Under the pieces are notes generated by a model, which saw only the letters and a list, made by a program, of their open reading frames with translations, did not search any database and had not been told where the DNA came from. Position numbers and translations under genes: made by a program. A stretch of 64,000 bases of DNA from an uncultured Alphaproteobacteria bacterium (lineage in GTDB: Bacteria; Pseudomonadota; Alphaproteobacteria; HIMB59; GCA-002718135). How positions within the stretch are numbered: the stretch's first letter is position 1; each line of letters starts with the position of its first letter. The DNA lies in assembly GCA_902569865.1 (NCBI GenBank), contig CACFVT010000002.1, positions 4,638 to 68,637 on the forward strand. The letters run 5' to 3'. Of this stretch, positions 2,859 to 29,101 are shown in pieces.

Positions 2859-4524
2859 ATGATTAAAAATAAACCATTTTTATTCGACTCAGATTCTTTA
2901 AAAAATTTTCATAAAAGAATCTTTCTTTCTATTTTAATTTTTCTATTTTTCTTTTTTTCTGTATTTTATAGAATAAGTTTTATTTCAATCTCAAGCTATT
3001 TTGATGTTTCATCTCAAATTAAATTAGAAAAAAAAGAAATAAGAGGTAATATTTATGATAGAAATGGAATAGTTTTAGCTGCAACAATAAATTCAAAATC
3101 ACTATCTGCTAGACCTAATTTAATAAATAATGTTGATGTTTTATCAAAACAATTAGTAGAAATTCTTAATATTGACGAAGAAATAATAAAAAATAAATTA
3201 TCGAGTAATAAAAAATTTATTTGGTTAAAAAGAAATATTACTCCCGTTGAACACCAAAAAATTATTGATCTTGGAGAAATTAATTTAGAATTTCATAATG
3301 AAAAAAAGAGAATTTATCCCTTTATGAATACTTCATCCCATCTTGTTGGTTTTGTAAATATTGATCAAATTGGCCAAAAAGGAATTGAAAGATATTTCAA
3401 TAAATCATTATCAAATTCCAAAGATATCACCTTATCAATTGATATAAATCTTCAACAATCAATTAAAAATAATTTATTAGAAACTATTAATTTTTACAAA
3501 GCAGATTCAGGTTTAGCGATAGTGATGGATATATCAAATGGTGAAGTTTTATCTTCTGTTAGTTATCCTGACTTTAATCCAAATGATAACCAAAGTTTTA
3601 ATGAAATTAATTTAATTAATAGAGTTATCCAATCTAATTATGAGATGGGTTCGACTTTTAAACCATTAACAGTTGTAAATGGATATGATTATGGAATTAT
3701 TAATCCAAATATGGTTTTTGATGTAAAAAAAAGTGTCAAAAATGTCAAAGATCATCATAGGTATAAGGGTAATGGATTATATAATGTAGAAAAAATTGTC
3801 GTTGAGTCATCAAATATAGGAACTGCACAAATAGCACTAAAAATCGGAAAGAAAAATCAAATGGATTTTTTTAATAAATTAGGTTTTTTTGATAAGATAG
3901 ATACTCAGCTTTTTGAAGTTGAAAAACCTCTTGGTAATCCAAATAATTGGGGAGAGCATGAAATTACAAGAATTGGTTTTGGTCACAGTTTTTCTATAAC
4001 ACCACTTCATCTAGTAAAAGCTTATGCTTCTTTAGCTAATAATGGCTATGAGGTAAATCCAACTTTTGTTTTAAATTCAGAAAAAAAATTATCCCAAACT
4101 AAAAATATTTTGTTAAAAAAAAGATTCTTCAAAGTATTTTTTAAGTTTATTAAATTCAGTAATTGCTAAAACACAGTTTACAGGACCAAGAGTTAAAATC
4201 GAGGGATATAAAATTGGAGGCAAGACTGGTACTTCAGAATTACTAGATCCAAAAGGCCAATATTATAAAGACAGAAATATGACTTCTTTTATAGGAATAT
4301 TTCCAATAAACAATCCTAGATATGTTGTATATACTGCAATTAATTATCCAAAAAAACCAACAGAATCAAATCAGAGAATGACTGGAGCAGTTGTAAATGC
4401 CCCTCTTGTAAAAAATATTATTTATGAAATGATTAAAATTTTAAATTTGCCTTCATATAGACATGATAATTTCATAAAAGCAGACATAAAACAATTTTAC
4501 AAACCCGGTTATGCTTTTCTCTGA
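2859..4524 (+). CDS. ftsI: Peptidoglycan D,D-transpeptidase FtsI (PBP3), interrupted by an apparent +1 frameshift in the A8 run at 4115-4122
   Basis: Frame 3 (2859-4169) carries the STFK and SSN motifs. Frame 1 (open from 4117 to 4524) carries GYKIGGKTGTS (KTG box) and the C-terminus. Frame 3 after the A-run gives nonsense (RFFKVFFKFIKFSNC*). Confidence 0.8.
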
Positions 4525-25924: not shown

Positions 25925-25972
25925 TCTTTAATTATTAAATTATCTGGCTTTTTTTGCTTGGTTCTTCAACAT

Positions 25973-26380
25973 TTATTTTAGACTTTCTATATAGGATAAA
26001 AAATTATTAATTTCTACAAATTCACAAAGGCCAATTGGAAACATTTCTCTAGTTGTAAATCCTCCTCCAGTCATTGCCCAAACATCAACTCTCAAAGAAT
26101 TAAGTTCAATAGAATAAACTCTATCTCTTATGTTATTTTCACTTAAGAATATATTAATGTAAGAAAGTTCTGAATCTACATCATAGTAATATTCATTAAT
26201 TGTTGTTATTTTGTTAAGATCTGTATTAATGACTTTTACCTTATTGGGGGAAATAAATTCAAATCCCCATAGTAACTTGGGACACAATAATTGATTATTG
26301 GAAAAATCTTTTTTTGTAAAAGCTATAGATGATGATGAATAAAAAATTAAAAATATAAAAATAAATAATTTTTTTTTCAT
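25973..26380 (-). CDS. Hypothetical secreted protein (135 aa)
   Basis: Clear signal peptide MKKKLFIFIFLIFYSSSSIA. No recognisable domain. Confidence 0.5.
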   Translation of the reverse strand: MKKKLFIFIFLIFYSSSSIAFTKKDFSNNQLLCPKLLWGFEFISPNKVKVINTDLNKITTINEYYYDVDSELSYINIFLSENNIRDRVYSIELNSLRVDVWAMTGGGFTTREMFPIGLCEFVEINNFLSYIESLK

Positions 26381-26453
26381 AAAAAAAGTTAGTTCTGTTT
26401 ATTTTTGTGCCAAAACTTTAAATTAAAATAAAATTATTTTTAATAAATAAAAA

Positions 26454-26813
26454 TTATTTTATTTTTTCCCATTCAGCCATACCTCCAGTAATATTTTTAA
26501 CATTTTTAATACCCATGTCTTGCATTGTTTTAGTTGCCAACGTACCTTGTCCTCCTACACCACAAAATACAATATACTCTTTGTCTGGGTTTTTTTTGAA
26601 AAAATCATTTTCTAAAGGACTTCCTTCAGCTAAATAAAATTCAAGGAATGCTTTATCCAAATGAATGGCATTTCCAATAGTCTCTTTAGAAAAACTTTCT
26701 TTATCCCTAACATCAATAAATTGTACATTTGGATCATTTAATTTATCTTTTGCTTCTGAAGCATTTATATTTTTTATCTCATTTTTAACACTCATTAAGT
26801 CTTCAAATTTTTT
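26454..26813 (-). CDS. Rhodanese-domain sulfurtransferase (single domain)
   Basis: Contains FIDVRD...YIVFCGVGGQGTLATK (active-site Cys loop)...GGMAEW. Start set at MKKFEDL (26813), which is preceded by an AGGAG. The longer ORF to 26906 runs into the ssrA-like repeat. Confidence 0.75.
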   Translation of the reverse strand, partial: KKFEDLMSVKNEIKNINASEAKDKLNDPNVQFIDVRDKESFSKETIGNAIHLDKAFLEFYLAEGSPLENDFFKKNPDKEYIVFCGVGGQGTLATKTMQDMGIKNVKNITGGMAEWEKIK

Positions 26814-26834
26814 CATAATACTCCTATCTTTATA

Positions 26835-26905
26835 ATGGGGTGTTCTGTTGCCCAGTGCGTGAACCAAACTAACAGAAATCTTGACTTTTTTAAATCTAAA
26901 ATTCA
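26835..26905 (-). repeat. ssrA 3'-end-like repeat, copy 1 (24-nt core plus about 45-nt arm shared with copy 2)
   Basis: The core ATGGGGTGTTCTGTTGCCCAGTGC matches 28738-28761 at 22 of 24 positions. The extension GTGAACCAAACTAACAGAAATCTTGACTTTTTTA is about 85% identical to the one after copy 2. Confidence 0.75.
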
Positions 26906-26974
26906 AAAAAGATGAGGAAATTAAAATTGTGAAATTTTAACATAAAATACTAAATTGGTGGTAATATTATTTAG

Positions 26975-27559
26975 ATGAAAAAACTTTCAGTGATCGTGGT
27001 TCTGGGTTTGATGTGGATTATTCCAGTATCAGCAAATGAAAGATTTATTCCTTTAGAGCTATTCACTGGCGGTGAAATAAGAGAAGATACAGAAATTAAA
27101 TTTACAAAAGCAAACAAAATATTTGGTGAAAAGAAAAGAAAAAAAATTGTTGGACCTGAGGATTGGAAAAACCCTCAAACTGGAGAAATAAAAAAAGTTT
27201 ATAAAAGAACAAGAGAAGGTCAAAGTGGATTAAAAACACAGTTATTTACAGTTACTAATGATGGACAGTGTATTGGAAGAGTTTGGGATAGCAGGCGCGG
27301 AGGAAGAGTAATAGAAAATGGATGTAAATTTCCTTTAGGGGTTTGGAAAGAAGGTGAGACTAGATCATTTAAAGGTTCTTCTGGCGGTAAGCCAAGAAAA
27401 ATTAAATTAACAATTTTAAAATTAGGAAAAAAACCTAAAAGTAGTATTAAATTTAATTGGAAATTATACAATTTAAGTTCAGGTGAATTGATGGATGACA
27501 ATGATTATACTTTTTCTCCTGGTAAGGCTATGACAAAGCTGAATGATAAAAAATTATAA
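26975..27559 (+). CDS. Hypothetical secreted basic protein (194 aa)
   Basis: Signal peptide MKKLSVIVVLGLMWIIPVSA and K/R/G-rich composition. No recognisable domain. Its stop lies 2 nt before repeat copy 2. Confidence 0.5.
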   Translation: MKKLSVIVVLGLMWIIPVSANERFIPLELFTGGEIREDTEIKFTKANKIFGEKKRKKIVGPEDWKNPQTGEIKKVYKRTREGQSGLKTQLFTVTNDGQCIGRVWDSRRGGRVIENGCKFPLGVWKEGETRSFKGSSGGKPRKIKLTILKLGKKPKSSIKFNWKLYNLSSGELMDDNDYTFSPGKAMTKLNDKKL

Positions 27560-27561
27560 AA

Positions 27562-27632
27562 ATGGGGCGTTCTGTTGCTCGGTGCGTGAACCAATCTAGC
27601 AGAAAACTTGGATTTTTTATATCATAAATTTT
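27562..27632 (-). repeat. ssrA 3'-end-like repeat, copy 2
   Basis: The core ATGGGGCGTTCTGTTGCTCGGTGC matches 28738-28761 at 23 of 24 positions and is followed by the arm shared with copy 1. Confidence 0.75.
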
Positions 27633-27649
27633 AATTTTTTTGATCTCTT

Positions 27650-27669
27650 TACGACGAGATTACGACGAG
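27650..27669 (+). repeat. Bipartite direct repeat TACGACGAG-AT-TACGACGAG (left copy)
   Basis: Direct repeat of 28665-28685, located 12 nt beyond the stop of the 309-aa gene. Confidence 0.6.
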
Positions 27670-27680
27670 TTTTATAATAT

Positions 27681-28610
27681 TTACCATGCTTGAAAATCAT
27701 AAGCTATTTCTTTATCTTTAAGAAATTGTGTAAACCTTGCTAAGCACATTTGTTCGTCAAAATTTTTTAAAACTAATAATAATTTTTCAAAATTATAATC
27801 TTTTAAATCTTCTTTTTTTATCGTAACTATACTTTCACAATCATCATTTCCATTTATATTTAAATTATCTCCCATACGCCATTCTCGATAAATAATAACA
27901 TCTTCTTTCTCTTCTAAAGTTTCTTCCCATTGTAATTTTTCGTTAGATCCTTCATTTATGATTTCTTCTTTTAAACTAGAAAAGTTTTTGATTTTCTGAG
28001 AGTTCCGATTCTTCTTCTTAGCCAATTCTTGCAAACGGTTTTCAAGGTGATTTGCTAGACTTTTTTCTGATAGAAATCCCTCCCTCCTTTTCAACGAGTA
28101 TGGGTTTTGCTCGTCTAGAAATTCTTCTTTCCTTTCCTTATTTTTGCGCTTTTTGCGCATGGAAATATATTCTTCTCTATCCATACCTGAATTTTTAGAC
28201 ACTAATCCGGTAGAAGGCATATTATTATTTAAAAATTCTTTTGCTTCTTTTACACCATCTTTTATTCCTATTTCACATTGCTCATATTTTTTACTAATAA
28301 TTATATCAAATATTGGATCAATACTCGTATTGCTCATTTCCAATTCAAAAAATTTAGAAAAGCAGTAATAGTTAATTAATTGTTTTGTATCTGATTCAAA
28401 TTTAAAATTATTTTTTATTTCTTGATGAATTGTCGCTGAAATTACAAAACCCCATACATAACCGTAAAAATAATTATTTCTTAATACTTCCAAATTATTA
28501 TTCTCAAATTGTAATATTAAAATTTTTTGCGTATTTAAAATTTGAAATAGTGATTCTGCAAAATCAACATATTCTTTTTTATTACTACTCATAAAATCGT
28601 CTAAACTCAT
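27681..28610 (-). CDS. Hypothetical protein (309 aa), orphan
   Basis: Long ORF with an aromatic-rich N-terminal region (YFYGYVWGFVISATIHQ), a K/R/E-rich central segment and a small C-terminal domain. I recognise no family. Confidence 0.55.
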   Translation of the reverse strand: MSLDDFMSSNKKEYVDFAESLFQILNTQKILILQFENNNLEVLRNNYFYGYVWGFVISATIHQEIKNNFKFESDTKQLINYYCFSKFFELEMSNTSIDPIFDIIISKKYEQCEIGIKDGVKEAKEFLNNNMPSTGLVSKNSGMDREEYISMRKKRKNKERKEEFLDEQNPYSLKRREGFLSEKSLANHLENRLQELAKKKNRNSQKIKNFSSLKEEIINEGSNEKLQWEETLEEKEDVIIYREWRMGDNLNINGNDDCESIVTIKKEDLKDYNFEKLLLVLKNFDEQMCLARFTQFLKDKEIAYDFQAW

Positions 28611-28664
28611 AATACTCTAAATATACCCTTCGTCTTTCAAAACGTATACAAATATACTTCTTCA

Positions 28665-28685
28665 TACGACGATATTACGACTAAG
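28665..28685 (+). repeat. Bipartite direct repeat TACGACGAT-AT-TACGACTAAG (right copy)
   Basis: Identical to 27650-27669 across the 17-nt block TACGACGAKATTACGAC except at K. Located about 55 nt upstream of the 309-aa gene start. Confidence 0.6.
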
Positions 28686-28737
28686 TTATTTGTTATTTGA
28701 AAAAATATAGAAATTTACTTGAAAATTTTTAATATTA

Positions 28738-28980
28738 ATGGGGCGTTCTGTTGCCCGGTGCCCCAAACCGCGCTAGCCTAGAATCTAGGCAGCGATAGCT
28801 AATCTATTATCGTTAGCGTTTATAATAATTGCCCGATAACGGCGGTACAATGCCGAGCAAAGTCTTTATCTTTTAGTTAACGTCAAACCTATTTCGCCCC
28901 CATAGTTTTATGGTGGAGGCGCCGGGTACCGCCCCCGGGTCCGCACAACCTATTAAATAAAGCATTTATCGCTATAGTTG
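28738..28980 (-). ncRNA. ssrA: Two-piece (circularly permuted) tmRNA gene: acceptor piece, then coding piece
   Basis: Read on the minus strand. The acceptor piece ends ...CCGGGGGCGGTACCCGGCGCCTCCACCA (28911). A 9-nt spacer follows, then the coding piece starts GGGGGCGAAATAGGTTTGACG (28901). GGGGGCG pairs with CGCCUCC and includes the G3:U pair. The tag ORF GCT AAC GAT AAT AGA TTA GCT ATC GCT GCC TAG encodes ANDNRLAIAA* (28785-28817). The 5' boundary is approximate. Confidence 0.85.
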
Positions 28981-28996
28981 ATAAATCAACATCCCT

Positions 28997-29024
28997 TTTA
29001 TAAACCAAAGTTAACAATCAAGAA
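28997..29024 (-). promoter_or_regulatory. Candidate sigma70-type promoter for ssrA
   Basis: On the minus strand, TTCTTG (29019-29024), a 16-nt spacer, then TATAAA (28997-29002), just upstream of the acceptor piece. Pattern match only. Confidence 0.3.
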
Positions 29025-29101
29025 AGTTTTGAATTTTTAAATATAAATTACCTCAAAAATCTGTTGTTAACATTAGGTTTTAGTGAAATAAGATTTGTCA
29101 G

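Follow-up and report, generated by a model that had tools for sequence, protein, structure and literature searches.

The DNA considered here is a stretch of 64,000 nucleotides (hereafter the window) from contig CACFVT010000002.1 of an uncultured alphaproteobacterium (GenBank assembly GCA_902569865.1), in which two short cassettes adjoin ssrA, the gene for transfer-messenger RNA (tmRNA). The cassettes are bounded by direct repeats of the ssrA 3' end, called the core below, and we consider it about 85% probable that they stem from serial site-specific integration at the ssrA 3' end of SAR11 bacteria, the two units in the window being integrase-less, satellite-type derivatives. An earlier note made from the letters of the window alone had already proposed serial integration, and the proposal is borne out by empty sites that are exact to the core, by the presence and absence of cassettes in a close relative (L009) and by matching elements that do carry an integrase. 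The comparison set consisted of 200 related loci: 119 genome loci, mostly from SAR11 single-cell genomes, obtained by a core scan of species-representative genomes and oriented like the window, and 81 metagenome contigs obtained by a scan for displaced cores (a core followed by GTG).

Within the 64-kb window the 24-nt pattern ATGGGGYGTTCTGTTGCYCRGTGC matched at three positions only, all on the plus strand (Table 1), and it matched in none of 100 shuffled sequences (0/100), on which ground chance repetition of the core was rejected. Relative to copy 3 there are 2 nt differences in copy 1 and 1 in copy 2. Copy 3 represents the last 24 nt of the ssrA gene model because the Rfam alpha_tmRNA match, which is full-length (E 6.7e-66), ends there; ARAGORN calls a permuted tmRNA with the tag ANDNRLAIAA. 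The likeness between copies 1 and 2 extends ~45 nt beyond the core on its ssrA side, giving a common block of 70 nt (core included) at 84% identity, and this arm resembles the real tmRNA weakly, with a 27-bit Rfam match. The intervals between the cores measure 727 and 1176 bp and contain one long open reading frame (ORF) each, of 194 and 309 aa, while the flanks are housekeeping genes, a rhodanese-domain gene beside copy 1 and genes for DHFR and ThyA beyond ssrA. The insert is, in other words, bounded by direct repeats of the ssrA 3' end with ssrA itself intact, as is required of a tRNA/tmRNA island. The earlier note had described the three copies, their identity with the tmRNA terminus, the shared arm (at about 85% identity) and the two single-gene intervals essentially as we find them, but its spacing of 21 nt between copy 1 and the rhodanese start is in fact 18 nt (ATG at 26816, copy 1 at 26835). 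It had also named three observations that would speak against integration, namely a 24-mer outside the tmRNA precursor, a generic dispersed repeat, or the same genes and repeats in all relatives. The 24-mer lies inside the tmRNA gene model and is not dispersed in the window, so that a generic repeat was rejected, and the cassettes are not conserved among relatives. A further direct repeat, TACGACGAnATTACGAC, which is absent from the earlier note, occurs at 27650 and 28665, a short way inside cores 2 and 3, such that the 309-aa gene lies between its two copies; no such pair is expected by chance.

Comparison of the related loci reveals a common anatomy, in which an intact cassette runs from core through P arm, cargo and P' arm to the next core. 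A motif of 9-11 nt occurs as a tandem pair in each arm, with a further single copy ~20 nt from the core in many P arms, and the sequences that adjoin displaced cores fall into a few arm families. The class of the motif is the same in both arms of one cassette and different between cassettes, at least 15 classes being distinguishable; those seen in integrase-less cassettes include ATTACGCGT, GGACGCGTA, ATTACGCAC, AGTCGCC and ACGGCAC, as well as TGACGCGT, CTTCGTAG, GTGCACACAG, ACTCCGGCGAG and TTACGACGAG. The P and P' arms of one cassette have a mean of 7.0 non-AT 8-mers in common, against 1.0 for arms drawn from different loci. Cassette 2 of the window has such repeated arm-type sites, distinct from the core, in both of its arms, and dozens of other cassettes, as well as autonomous elements, show this layout too. 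The cassette arms have the layout of a lambda-type element attachment site (attP) with putative arm-type sites. The stretch common to the cores is approximately CGTTCTGT and stands between the short dyad GGGC/GCCC. Strand exchange can be placed inside the core because two junctions share only a short stretch of it: a cassette of the CTTCGTAG class has a shortened distal core, ATGGGGCGTTCTGT abutting AGAACGACCA, which forms the palindrome CGTTCT-GT-AGAACG, and the attP of the metagenome element L333 has only GCGTTCTGTTGCCCGGTGC in common with ssrA. The exchange itself probably occurs in GTTCTGT(T), which corresponds to 28745-28752 of the window.

Cassette 2 (27586-28737) has kept both of its arm-site pairs, which belong to the TTACGACGAG class. 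Over 115 nt its P arm matches that of L117 at 95% identity, and the P arm of L077 matches it at 89%; the cargo differs in all three. The match of this cassette to an autonomous element is limited to motif class and P' spacing: contig L333, which encodes integrase P0069 (N-terminus MATIYKRKGPRGTVWQVEIRKRNHKYVAKSF), has GCTACGACGAC-ATTACGACGAG in P' and ATTACGACGAA-TTTACGACAAC in P, belongs to the same class and sets its P' motif 52 nt from the core, as does cassette 2. In its predicted anatomy cassette 2 is an integrase-less unit of attP arms plus cargo. The cargo proteins of the two cassettes, 194 and 309 aa, have no Pfam or PHROG match. For the 309-aa protein no homolog was found at E<=0.001 among 5.8 billion protein clusters, nor in any of the 200 related loci, and by the measure of these searches it is a true orphan in an otherwise typical cassette. 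The 194-aa protein, by contrast, has 588 homologous clusters, Pelagibacter isolates among them, and copies that are 96-98% identical reside in core-flanked cassettes of L009, L018, L026 and L259. In L009, L018 and L026 a P' arm of ~97 nt with GTGCACACAG-type motifs lies between the stop of the 194-aa gene and the next core, and the P' arm of these intact cassettes is 91% identical to that of the autonomous element L325 (integrase P0092). The corresponding stop in cassette 1 (26859-27561) is only 2 nt from core 2, and this cassette is therefore without a P' arm. Judged against its intact counterparts, cassette 1 is a degraded copy of the widespread 194-aa cassette in which P' arm and arm motifs have been lost.

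The same locus is occupied by other arrays elsewhere in the clade. Extra cores were always found downstream of ssrA and in direct orientation in the 119-locus scan, and when the left half of the core was used as a probe on loci with at least 1.5 kb of flank, 44 of 57 SAR11 ssrA loci were seen to possess 1-5 extra cores. The cassettes are 0.12-3.4 kb long, with a median of 801 bp, and ssrA-anchored cassette arrays are a widespread feature of SAR11. Empty sites, at which the rhodanese gene is followed by a single core and then ssrA, are present in L031, L025, L101 and L110. Window positions 26421-26858 correspond to 3556-3996 of L031 and positions 28738-29100 to 3973-4335, and the two blocks overlap exactly in the core. 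L009, whose ThyA is 95% identical, has the 194-aa cassette directly beside ssrA and no 309-aa cassette, and the close relatives L118 and L084 have other arrays. The 194-aa cassette, proximal in L009, is displaced outward in the window, L018 and L026; the newest units are nearest ssrA and the order of the array differs among relatives. The cross-genome alignment that the earlier note had proposed thus returned varying cassette number and content with boundaries that stay at the core. Content is highly variable, and no gene is conserved across arrays; the cargo includes recurrent secreted trypsin-like proteases, a major facilitator superfamily transporter, an autotransporter and many orphans. 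The commonest unit is a cassette of ~801 bp and CTTCGTAG class with a 175-aa ORF that has no Pfam match (L116:1027-1828, L022:790-1591, L098:2098-2885 and ~15 more loci).

No recombinase was detected in the 64-kb window, either by tblastn with an element integrase (E<1e-3) or by a motif screen of 61 ORFs, in agreement with what had been noted for the vicinity of ssrA. Integrases are, however, found beside the core in relatives. In 13 metagenome contigs an ORF of 330-345 aa, directed away from the core, begins at a distance of ~96-103 nt from it and encodes a tyrosine integrase (PF00589, E 4.5e-31) of a family in which box II reads HDLRAC and which has 722 clusters at E<=1e-30, with members named Pelagibacteraceae recombinases by NCBI. 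A sulfatase of L077, picked out as an integrase candidate by the expression H.[LFMIV]R[HRKY][ST], was a false lead. The integrase gene is followed by a 63-aa ORF with weak AlpA/helix-turn-helix-like matches and then by a gene for an 895-aa DUF5906 primase/helicase-type protein; this set of integrase, primase/helicase and AlpA-type, excisionase-like regulator, which the window lacks, is present in L258, L304, L325 and L333. An exact terminal overlap of 123 nt closes L258 into a circle of ~5.96 kb, L298, L257 and L304 are circular permutations, and L325, a TARA scaffold with int and DUF5906, holds a 9,700-nt unit repeated at 99.98% identity and assembled 1.5 times. The autonomous elements are accordingly ~6-10 kb in size and circular or concatemeric, sometimes with cargo. 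The earlier note had called for circles and empty sites to be sought, and both exist, the circular forms for the autonomous elements and the empty sites with core-exact boundaries. Integrated copies stand directly beside ssrA, some with metabolic cargo, in loci syntenic with the window (L028, L321-L324, L328 and L329). Thus an integrase beside the tRNA-proximal attachment (att) site, which is absent from the window, does occur in these relatives, ~100 nt from the ssrA core. Among the 25 Pfam families listed for 137 island ORFs, each with at least two members, there was no integrase; L028 nonetheless has one.

In the autonomous elements the attP consists of the ssrA core, a P' arm of ~75-100 nt and a P arm of ~150-170 nt. 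Of 14 contigs with an integrase, 11 have one and the same motif class to either side of the core, as would be expected of attP; such agreement is rare at junctions of unrelated cassettes. The link to integrase-less cassettes is provided by the element L311, whose P arm is 97% identical over 171 nt, and P' arm 100% identical over 90 nt, to those of L015; the values for L022 are 90% (P) and 97% (P'). The homology of L311 to these same-class cassettes is confined to the two arms and ends 25 nt before the integrase ATG, the interiors being unrelated. There is, therefore, integrase-less DNA flanked by att arms that are 90-100% identical to those of autonomous elements of the same class.

The N-terminal 45 residues of the integrases form classes that change with the arm motif, in ~15 pairs, and the tandem motifs presumably bind this N-terminal domain. 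Column entropy over 48 integrases was 0.57 in the N-terminal 45 residues and 0.56 elsewhere, and so displayed no clear N-terminal hypervariability. In the AlphaFold model of P0069 (mean predicted local distance difference test score, pLDDT, 65.8), residues 2-52 form three strands and a helix (pLDDT 74-83), and the best fold matches of the model include full-length lambda Int (1z1b, E 5e-8). No family match was obtained for the N-terminal domain, and a PDB sequence search matched the catalytic domain only. The modelled N-terminal fold would be in keeping with an arm-binding domain, although it does not prove one.

These data suggest a scheme in which elements would integrate serially into the final ~24 nt of ssrA, leaving the cores as scars. 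The N-terminal domain of the cognate integrase would bind the arm motifs and its catalytic domains the core, and strand exchange in GTTCTGT(T) would rebuild ssrA. Each newcomer would enter at the ssrA-proximal core and push older units outward, where old cores would decay. The sequence of the arm sites would be specific to each integrase subtype, such that an integrase-less cassette with both arms, such as cassette 2, could be moved when an incoming element supplies the integrase, whereas cassettes that lose one arm, such as cassette 1, would become fixed and decay. The anatomy of cassette 2 agrees with the integrase-in-trans mini-cassettes that the earlier note had offered as one possibility, and its movement may be supposed from that anatomy; we put the chance that it is still mobilisable in trans at roughly even. 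A bolder extension is that SAR11 ssrA serves as a gene-capture platform, at which cassettes of attP plus cargo, derived from elements of phage-satellite type and resembling miniature inverted-repeat transposable elements, are moved in trans by at least 15 orthogonal integrase/arm-site specificities carried on ~6-10 kb circles. We advance this tentatively, and would sooner expect it to be wrong than right.

Several observations weigh against serial integration with satellite-type derivatives as set out above. The P' motifs of cassette 2 are imperfect (ATACGACGAT / ATTACGACTAAG). The P-arm scaffold of both window cassettes, arm A, occurs in 0 of 14 integrase-bearing contigs, as against ~20 of 62 integrase-less junctions, and it puts the tandem motif at +64..+85 rather than at ~+125..+170 as in the autonomous P arm; arm A is a shortened version of the autonomous scaffold and may no longer be a substrate for the integrase. 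Mobility of integrase-less cassettes, for which intact arms are the sole argument, is plausible. The integrase model is a modest one, as its mean pLDDT indicates, and its N-terminal domain is without a sequence family match. Long arrays are cut short in the genome loci, which are tiles of 8 kb. Finally, a phage or satellite lifestyle of the elements is unproven, the core being absent from IMG/VR.

It could be argued that the window cassettes are dead remnants, two full elements having integrated and then lost int, alpA and primase by deletion, to leave units that are now immobile and are inherited vertically or moved with their flanks only. Deletion decay certainly occurs, because N-terminal integrase stubs adjoin cores in L065, L061 and L118. 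The loss of P' arm and arm motifs in cassette 1 relative to L009, L018 and L026, the progressive decay of the relic cores around a neighbouring gene, orf135, and an arm A that corresponds to the autonomous P arm with a deletion and was seen only in units without an integrase, all fit such a history, and for cassette 1 the suggestion of decayed tandem islands in the earlier note holds. Random deletion, however, would not leave exactly both arms time after time and nothing of int or primase, yet the homology to the autonomous element seen in L015 and L022 (97-100%) ends 25 nt short of the integrase ATG and just past the P-arm tandem site. The occurrence of one arm scaffold and motif with unrelated cargo in the window, L117 and L077, and the covariation of P and P' motifs within integrase-less cassettes, are equally difficult to reconcile with simple decay. 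We regard dead remnants as a real possibility, though one that falls some way short of even odds.

Exchange by homologous recombination is a less attractive explanation. SAR11 is known for high recombination, and the flanks (rhodanese on one side, ssrA-DHFR-ThyA on the other) are conserved and syntenic across many genomes and could let whole arrays be replaced, such that RecA-dependent swapping through the core and the flanks might suffice, with no site-specific recombination today. A core of 24 nt is, however, marginal for RecA exchange, the ATGGGGCGTTCTGT/AGAACGACCA junctions place the exchange inside the core, and neither the paired, covarying arm motifs nor the circular elements with attP are explained. 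The hypervariable spot of the earlier note, at which single genes are exchanged through the repeated core, does not account for the covarying arms if homologous recombination alone is at work, and we consider a spot of this kind improbable. An integron-like platform, in which a dedicated host recombinase would capture single-gene cassettes beside ssrA as IntI does with attI and attC, is more improbable by far. Most units have one to three genes and a repeated boundary, additions occur at one end, and most genomes lack a recombinase in cis, all of which recall an integron. No IntI-like or other recombinase is encoded in the 64 kb, however, the boundary is the ssrA 3' end with lambda-type arms and not an attC hairpin, and a single host enzyme cannot explain at least 15 arm classes that covary with integrase subtypes on separate mobile elements. 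The integron reading was rejected for want of IntI and attC, and the integron-like array of the earlier note survives as a functional analogy only.

Table 1. Positions of the ssrA locus features in the 64-kb window, with the basis for each.
Feature	Position	Strand	Basis or remark
ssrA, circularly permuted two-piece alphaproteobacterial tmRNA gene, integration target	28737..29029	-	Rfam RF01849 228.7 bits, RF04321 152 bits; ARAGORN
Core copy 3, ssrA 3' end, putative attL-type junction of cassette 2, site predicted to be still available as attB	28738..28761	+	identical to single core of empty-site genomes, e.g. L031, L101
P' arm of cassette 2	28611..28737	+	tandem arm-type motif ATACGACGAT-ATTACGACTAAG at 28664-28685, 52 nt from core
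Cargo of cassette 2, 309-aa orphan ORF	27681..28610	-	integrase position and orientation of autonomous elements
P arm of cassette 2 (arm A scaffold)	27586..27680	+	tandem arm-type motif TTTACGACGAG-ATTACGACGAG at 27649-27670
Core copy 2, cassette 1/cassette 2 junction	27562..27585	+	T at position 18, element-type core allele
Cargo of cassette 1, 194-aa protein, signal-peptide-like N-terminus, common SAR11 flexible gene family	26975..27559	+	ORF list; homologous clusters
P arm of cassette 1 (arm A scaffold), degraded, its tandem motif beyond recognition	26859..26974	+	comparison with L009, L018, L026
Core copy 1, putative distal attR-type junction beside conserved flank	26835..26858	+	pattern match
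Rhodanese-domain gene, conserved flank, possibly old cassette	26454..26816	-	Pfam PF00581, E 1.6e-20; adjoins ssrA directly in empty-site genomes
Relic (decayed) core between rhodanese gene and orf135	26385..26410	+	weak fourth repeat copy; aligns with intact ssrA core after orf135 in L012, L108
Relic (decayed) core downstream of orf135 (25973-26380, -)	25942..25964	+	aligns with intact cores flanking orf135 cassette in L012, L108

The array does not appear to end at copy 1. The two decayed cores around orf135 indicate that it is older and longer than the three intact repeats suggest. In L012 and L108 orf135 is a core-flanked cassette beside ssrA, and in L062 the order of the rhodanese gene and orf135 is swapped; in almost every syntenic genome a full or decayed core precedes the rhodanese start by ~18-20 nt. 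The conserved flank, comprising the rhodanese gene and orf135, looks like a set of older, fixed cassettes. At the position of T18 in core copy 2 the cores of autonomous elements read GCTCGG or GCCCGG.

Some observations concern the wider distribution of cores and elements. Solitary, near-perfect ssrA cores lie far from tmRNA genes, between housekeeping genes, in other SAR11 genomes (L073:5793, L079:1313 downstream of rnhA, L076:7564 beside tRNA-Met, L081:2069 and L107:7177), and could be secondary attachment sites or traces of rearrangement. Many of the metagenome contigs L240-L319 stop within a few nt of the core, and most contigs with the 194-aa gene are ~1 kb, as short-read assemblies break at the ssrA locus because of the core repeats. 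The element in L325, L326 and L327 has copper-related cargo, consisting of a CsoR-like repressor, a cupredoxin, DUF4396, DsbA and a cytochrome c. An identical integrase, P0031, recurs in 154 blocks of the contig collection (L321-L324). The locus is syntenic with the window, and in it the integrase gene sits between ssrA and genes for TauD, a Cys/Met-metabolism pyridoxal phosphate enzyme, a rhodanese and an S-methyltransferase; the arrangement has the look of an island with its own integrase that has become fixed in a widespread lineage of SAR11.

The search for attP beside tyrosine integrases that the earlier note had advised was successful on metagenome contigs but not in GenBank phages or IMG/VR. 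The core, as a 22-nt pattern, is absent from 2.9 million IMG/VR viral contigs, the TTACGACGAG tandem had no match in IMG/VR (a 14-mer scan gave chance matches only), and blastn of arm plus core against GenBank phages returned nothing relevant and no pelagiphage attP. Pelagiphage papers describe integration into tRNA-Cys, tRNA-Leu and tRNA-Arg, not into the tmRNA gene. Five IMG/VR contigs with a GC content of ~0.49 (L143, L147, L149, L173 and L194) share GTGGGGCGTTCTGTTGCGTTGTGG, a variant tmRNA 3' end that may be the attP of a phage targeting ssrA of another alphaproteobacterium.

SAR11 is the most abundant bacterial clade in the ocean. To our knowledge it is regarded as nearly free of mobile elements, and the origin of its flexible genes is therefore an open question. 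The cassettes point to one concrete route at one locus, in which tmRNA-targeted small integrative elements would leave minimal cassettes with complete attachment arms. The specific junction sequences and the cognate integrase/arm pairs constitute testable predictions, and the pairs of arm class and integrase N-terminus offer a natural series for studying how specificity evolves in heterobivalent integrases. If ssrA does act as a gene-capture platform, a bacterium with almost no mobile-element genes would gain and shuffle single genes in an integron-like manner.

The kind of system is a known one, and we found no published description of ssrA-anchored arrays of minimal attP-plus-cargo units with many arm classes paired to integrase subtypes. 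The closest relatives of the autonomous elements appear to be the virion-encapsidated VEIMEs (Eppley et al. 2022; PMC9618062), which are associated with Pelagibacter and encode a tyrosine integrase, a primase/helicase and AlpA, one module containing periplasmic serine proteases. Going by that published description, the elements resemble VEIMEs in their size of ~6-10 kb, in the tyrosine integrase, AlpA-like protein and primase/helicase, in forming circles or concatemers in marine metagenomes and in being integrated in Pelagibacteraceae genomes, with trypsin-like proteases as recurrent cargo. A difference is that the window holds integrase-less derivatives only. For packaging of the elements as concatemers in helper-phage capsids, the 9.7-kb unit of L325, assembled 1.5 times, and the circle of L258 are indirect signs at most. 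In its main text PMC9618062 says nothing of tmRNA or of attachment sites, and what is described here of the ssrA target, the classes of arm site and the non-autonomous cassettes does not come from that work.

Cis-mobilisable elements (CIMEs) of Streptococcus thermophilus, like other non-autonomous integrative elements, have no recombination genes of their own but lie between att sites belonging to a related autonomous element; a cognate element integrating alongside presumably carries them with it or enables their movement. CIMEs are few in number and have their origin in conjugative elements. The window cassettes resemble CIMEs as att-flanked DNA that lacks its own recombination genes, but differ in belonging to a large population of minimal attP-plus-cargo units with many orthogonal arm specificities at one tmRNA site. 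In Prochlorococcus, tycheposons (Hackl et al., bioRxiv 10.1101/2020.12.28.424599) stack in tandem at tRNA/tmRNA genes with partial tRNA copies between them, newcomers pushing older elements inward, and the same paper describes fragmented integrases and scattered partial tRNAs. Integration at a tRNA or tmRNA gene of a streamlined marine bacterium, stacking, degenerate remnants and cargo modules are common to both systems; the host is a different one, and most units here are 0.3-3 kb, contain no integrase fragment and keep both att arms.

Two further reports describe a tRNA-Lys additive flexible genomic island of Methylophilaceae, in which cassettes are delimited by repeats of the last ~20 nt of the tRNA gene (PMC10872708), and SAR11 tRNA-linked islands, one of them linked to the tmRNA gene and almost none with integrases (PMC11796062). 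As in those reports, direct repeats of a gene 3' end delimit cassettes in streamlined pelagic bacteria; arm-type sites, specificity classes and matching autonomous elements do not appear to feature in either source. With integrons, finally, the arrays share the one-ended addition of small, mostly promoterless-looking cassettes to a fixed place in the chromosome. They lack IntI, attI and attC, however: by reading of the sequence, the cassette ends consist of an ssrA core with only a 4-bp dyad (GGGC/GCCC) and of direct-repeat arms, making them probable double-stranded lambda-type att sites, the recombinases for which are located on separate mobile elements.

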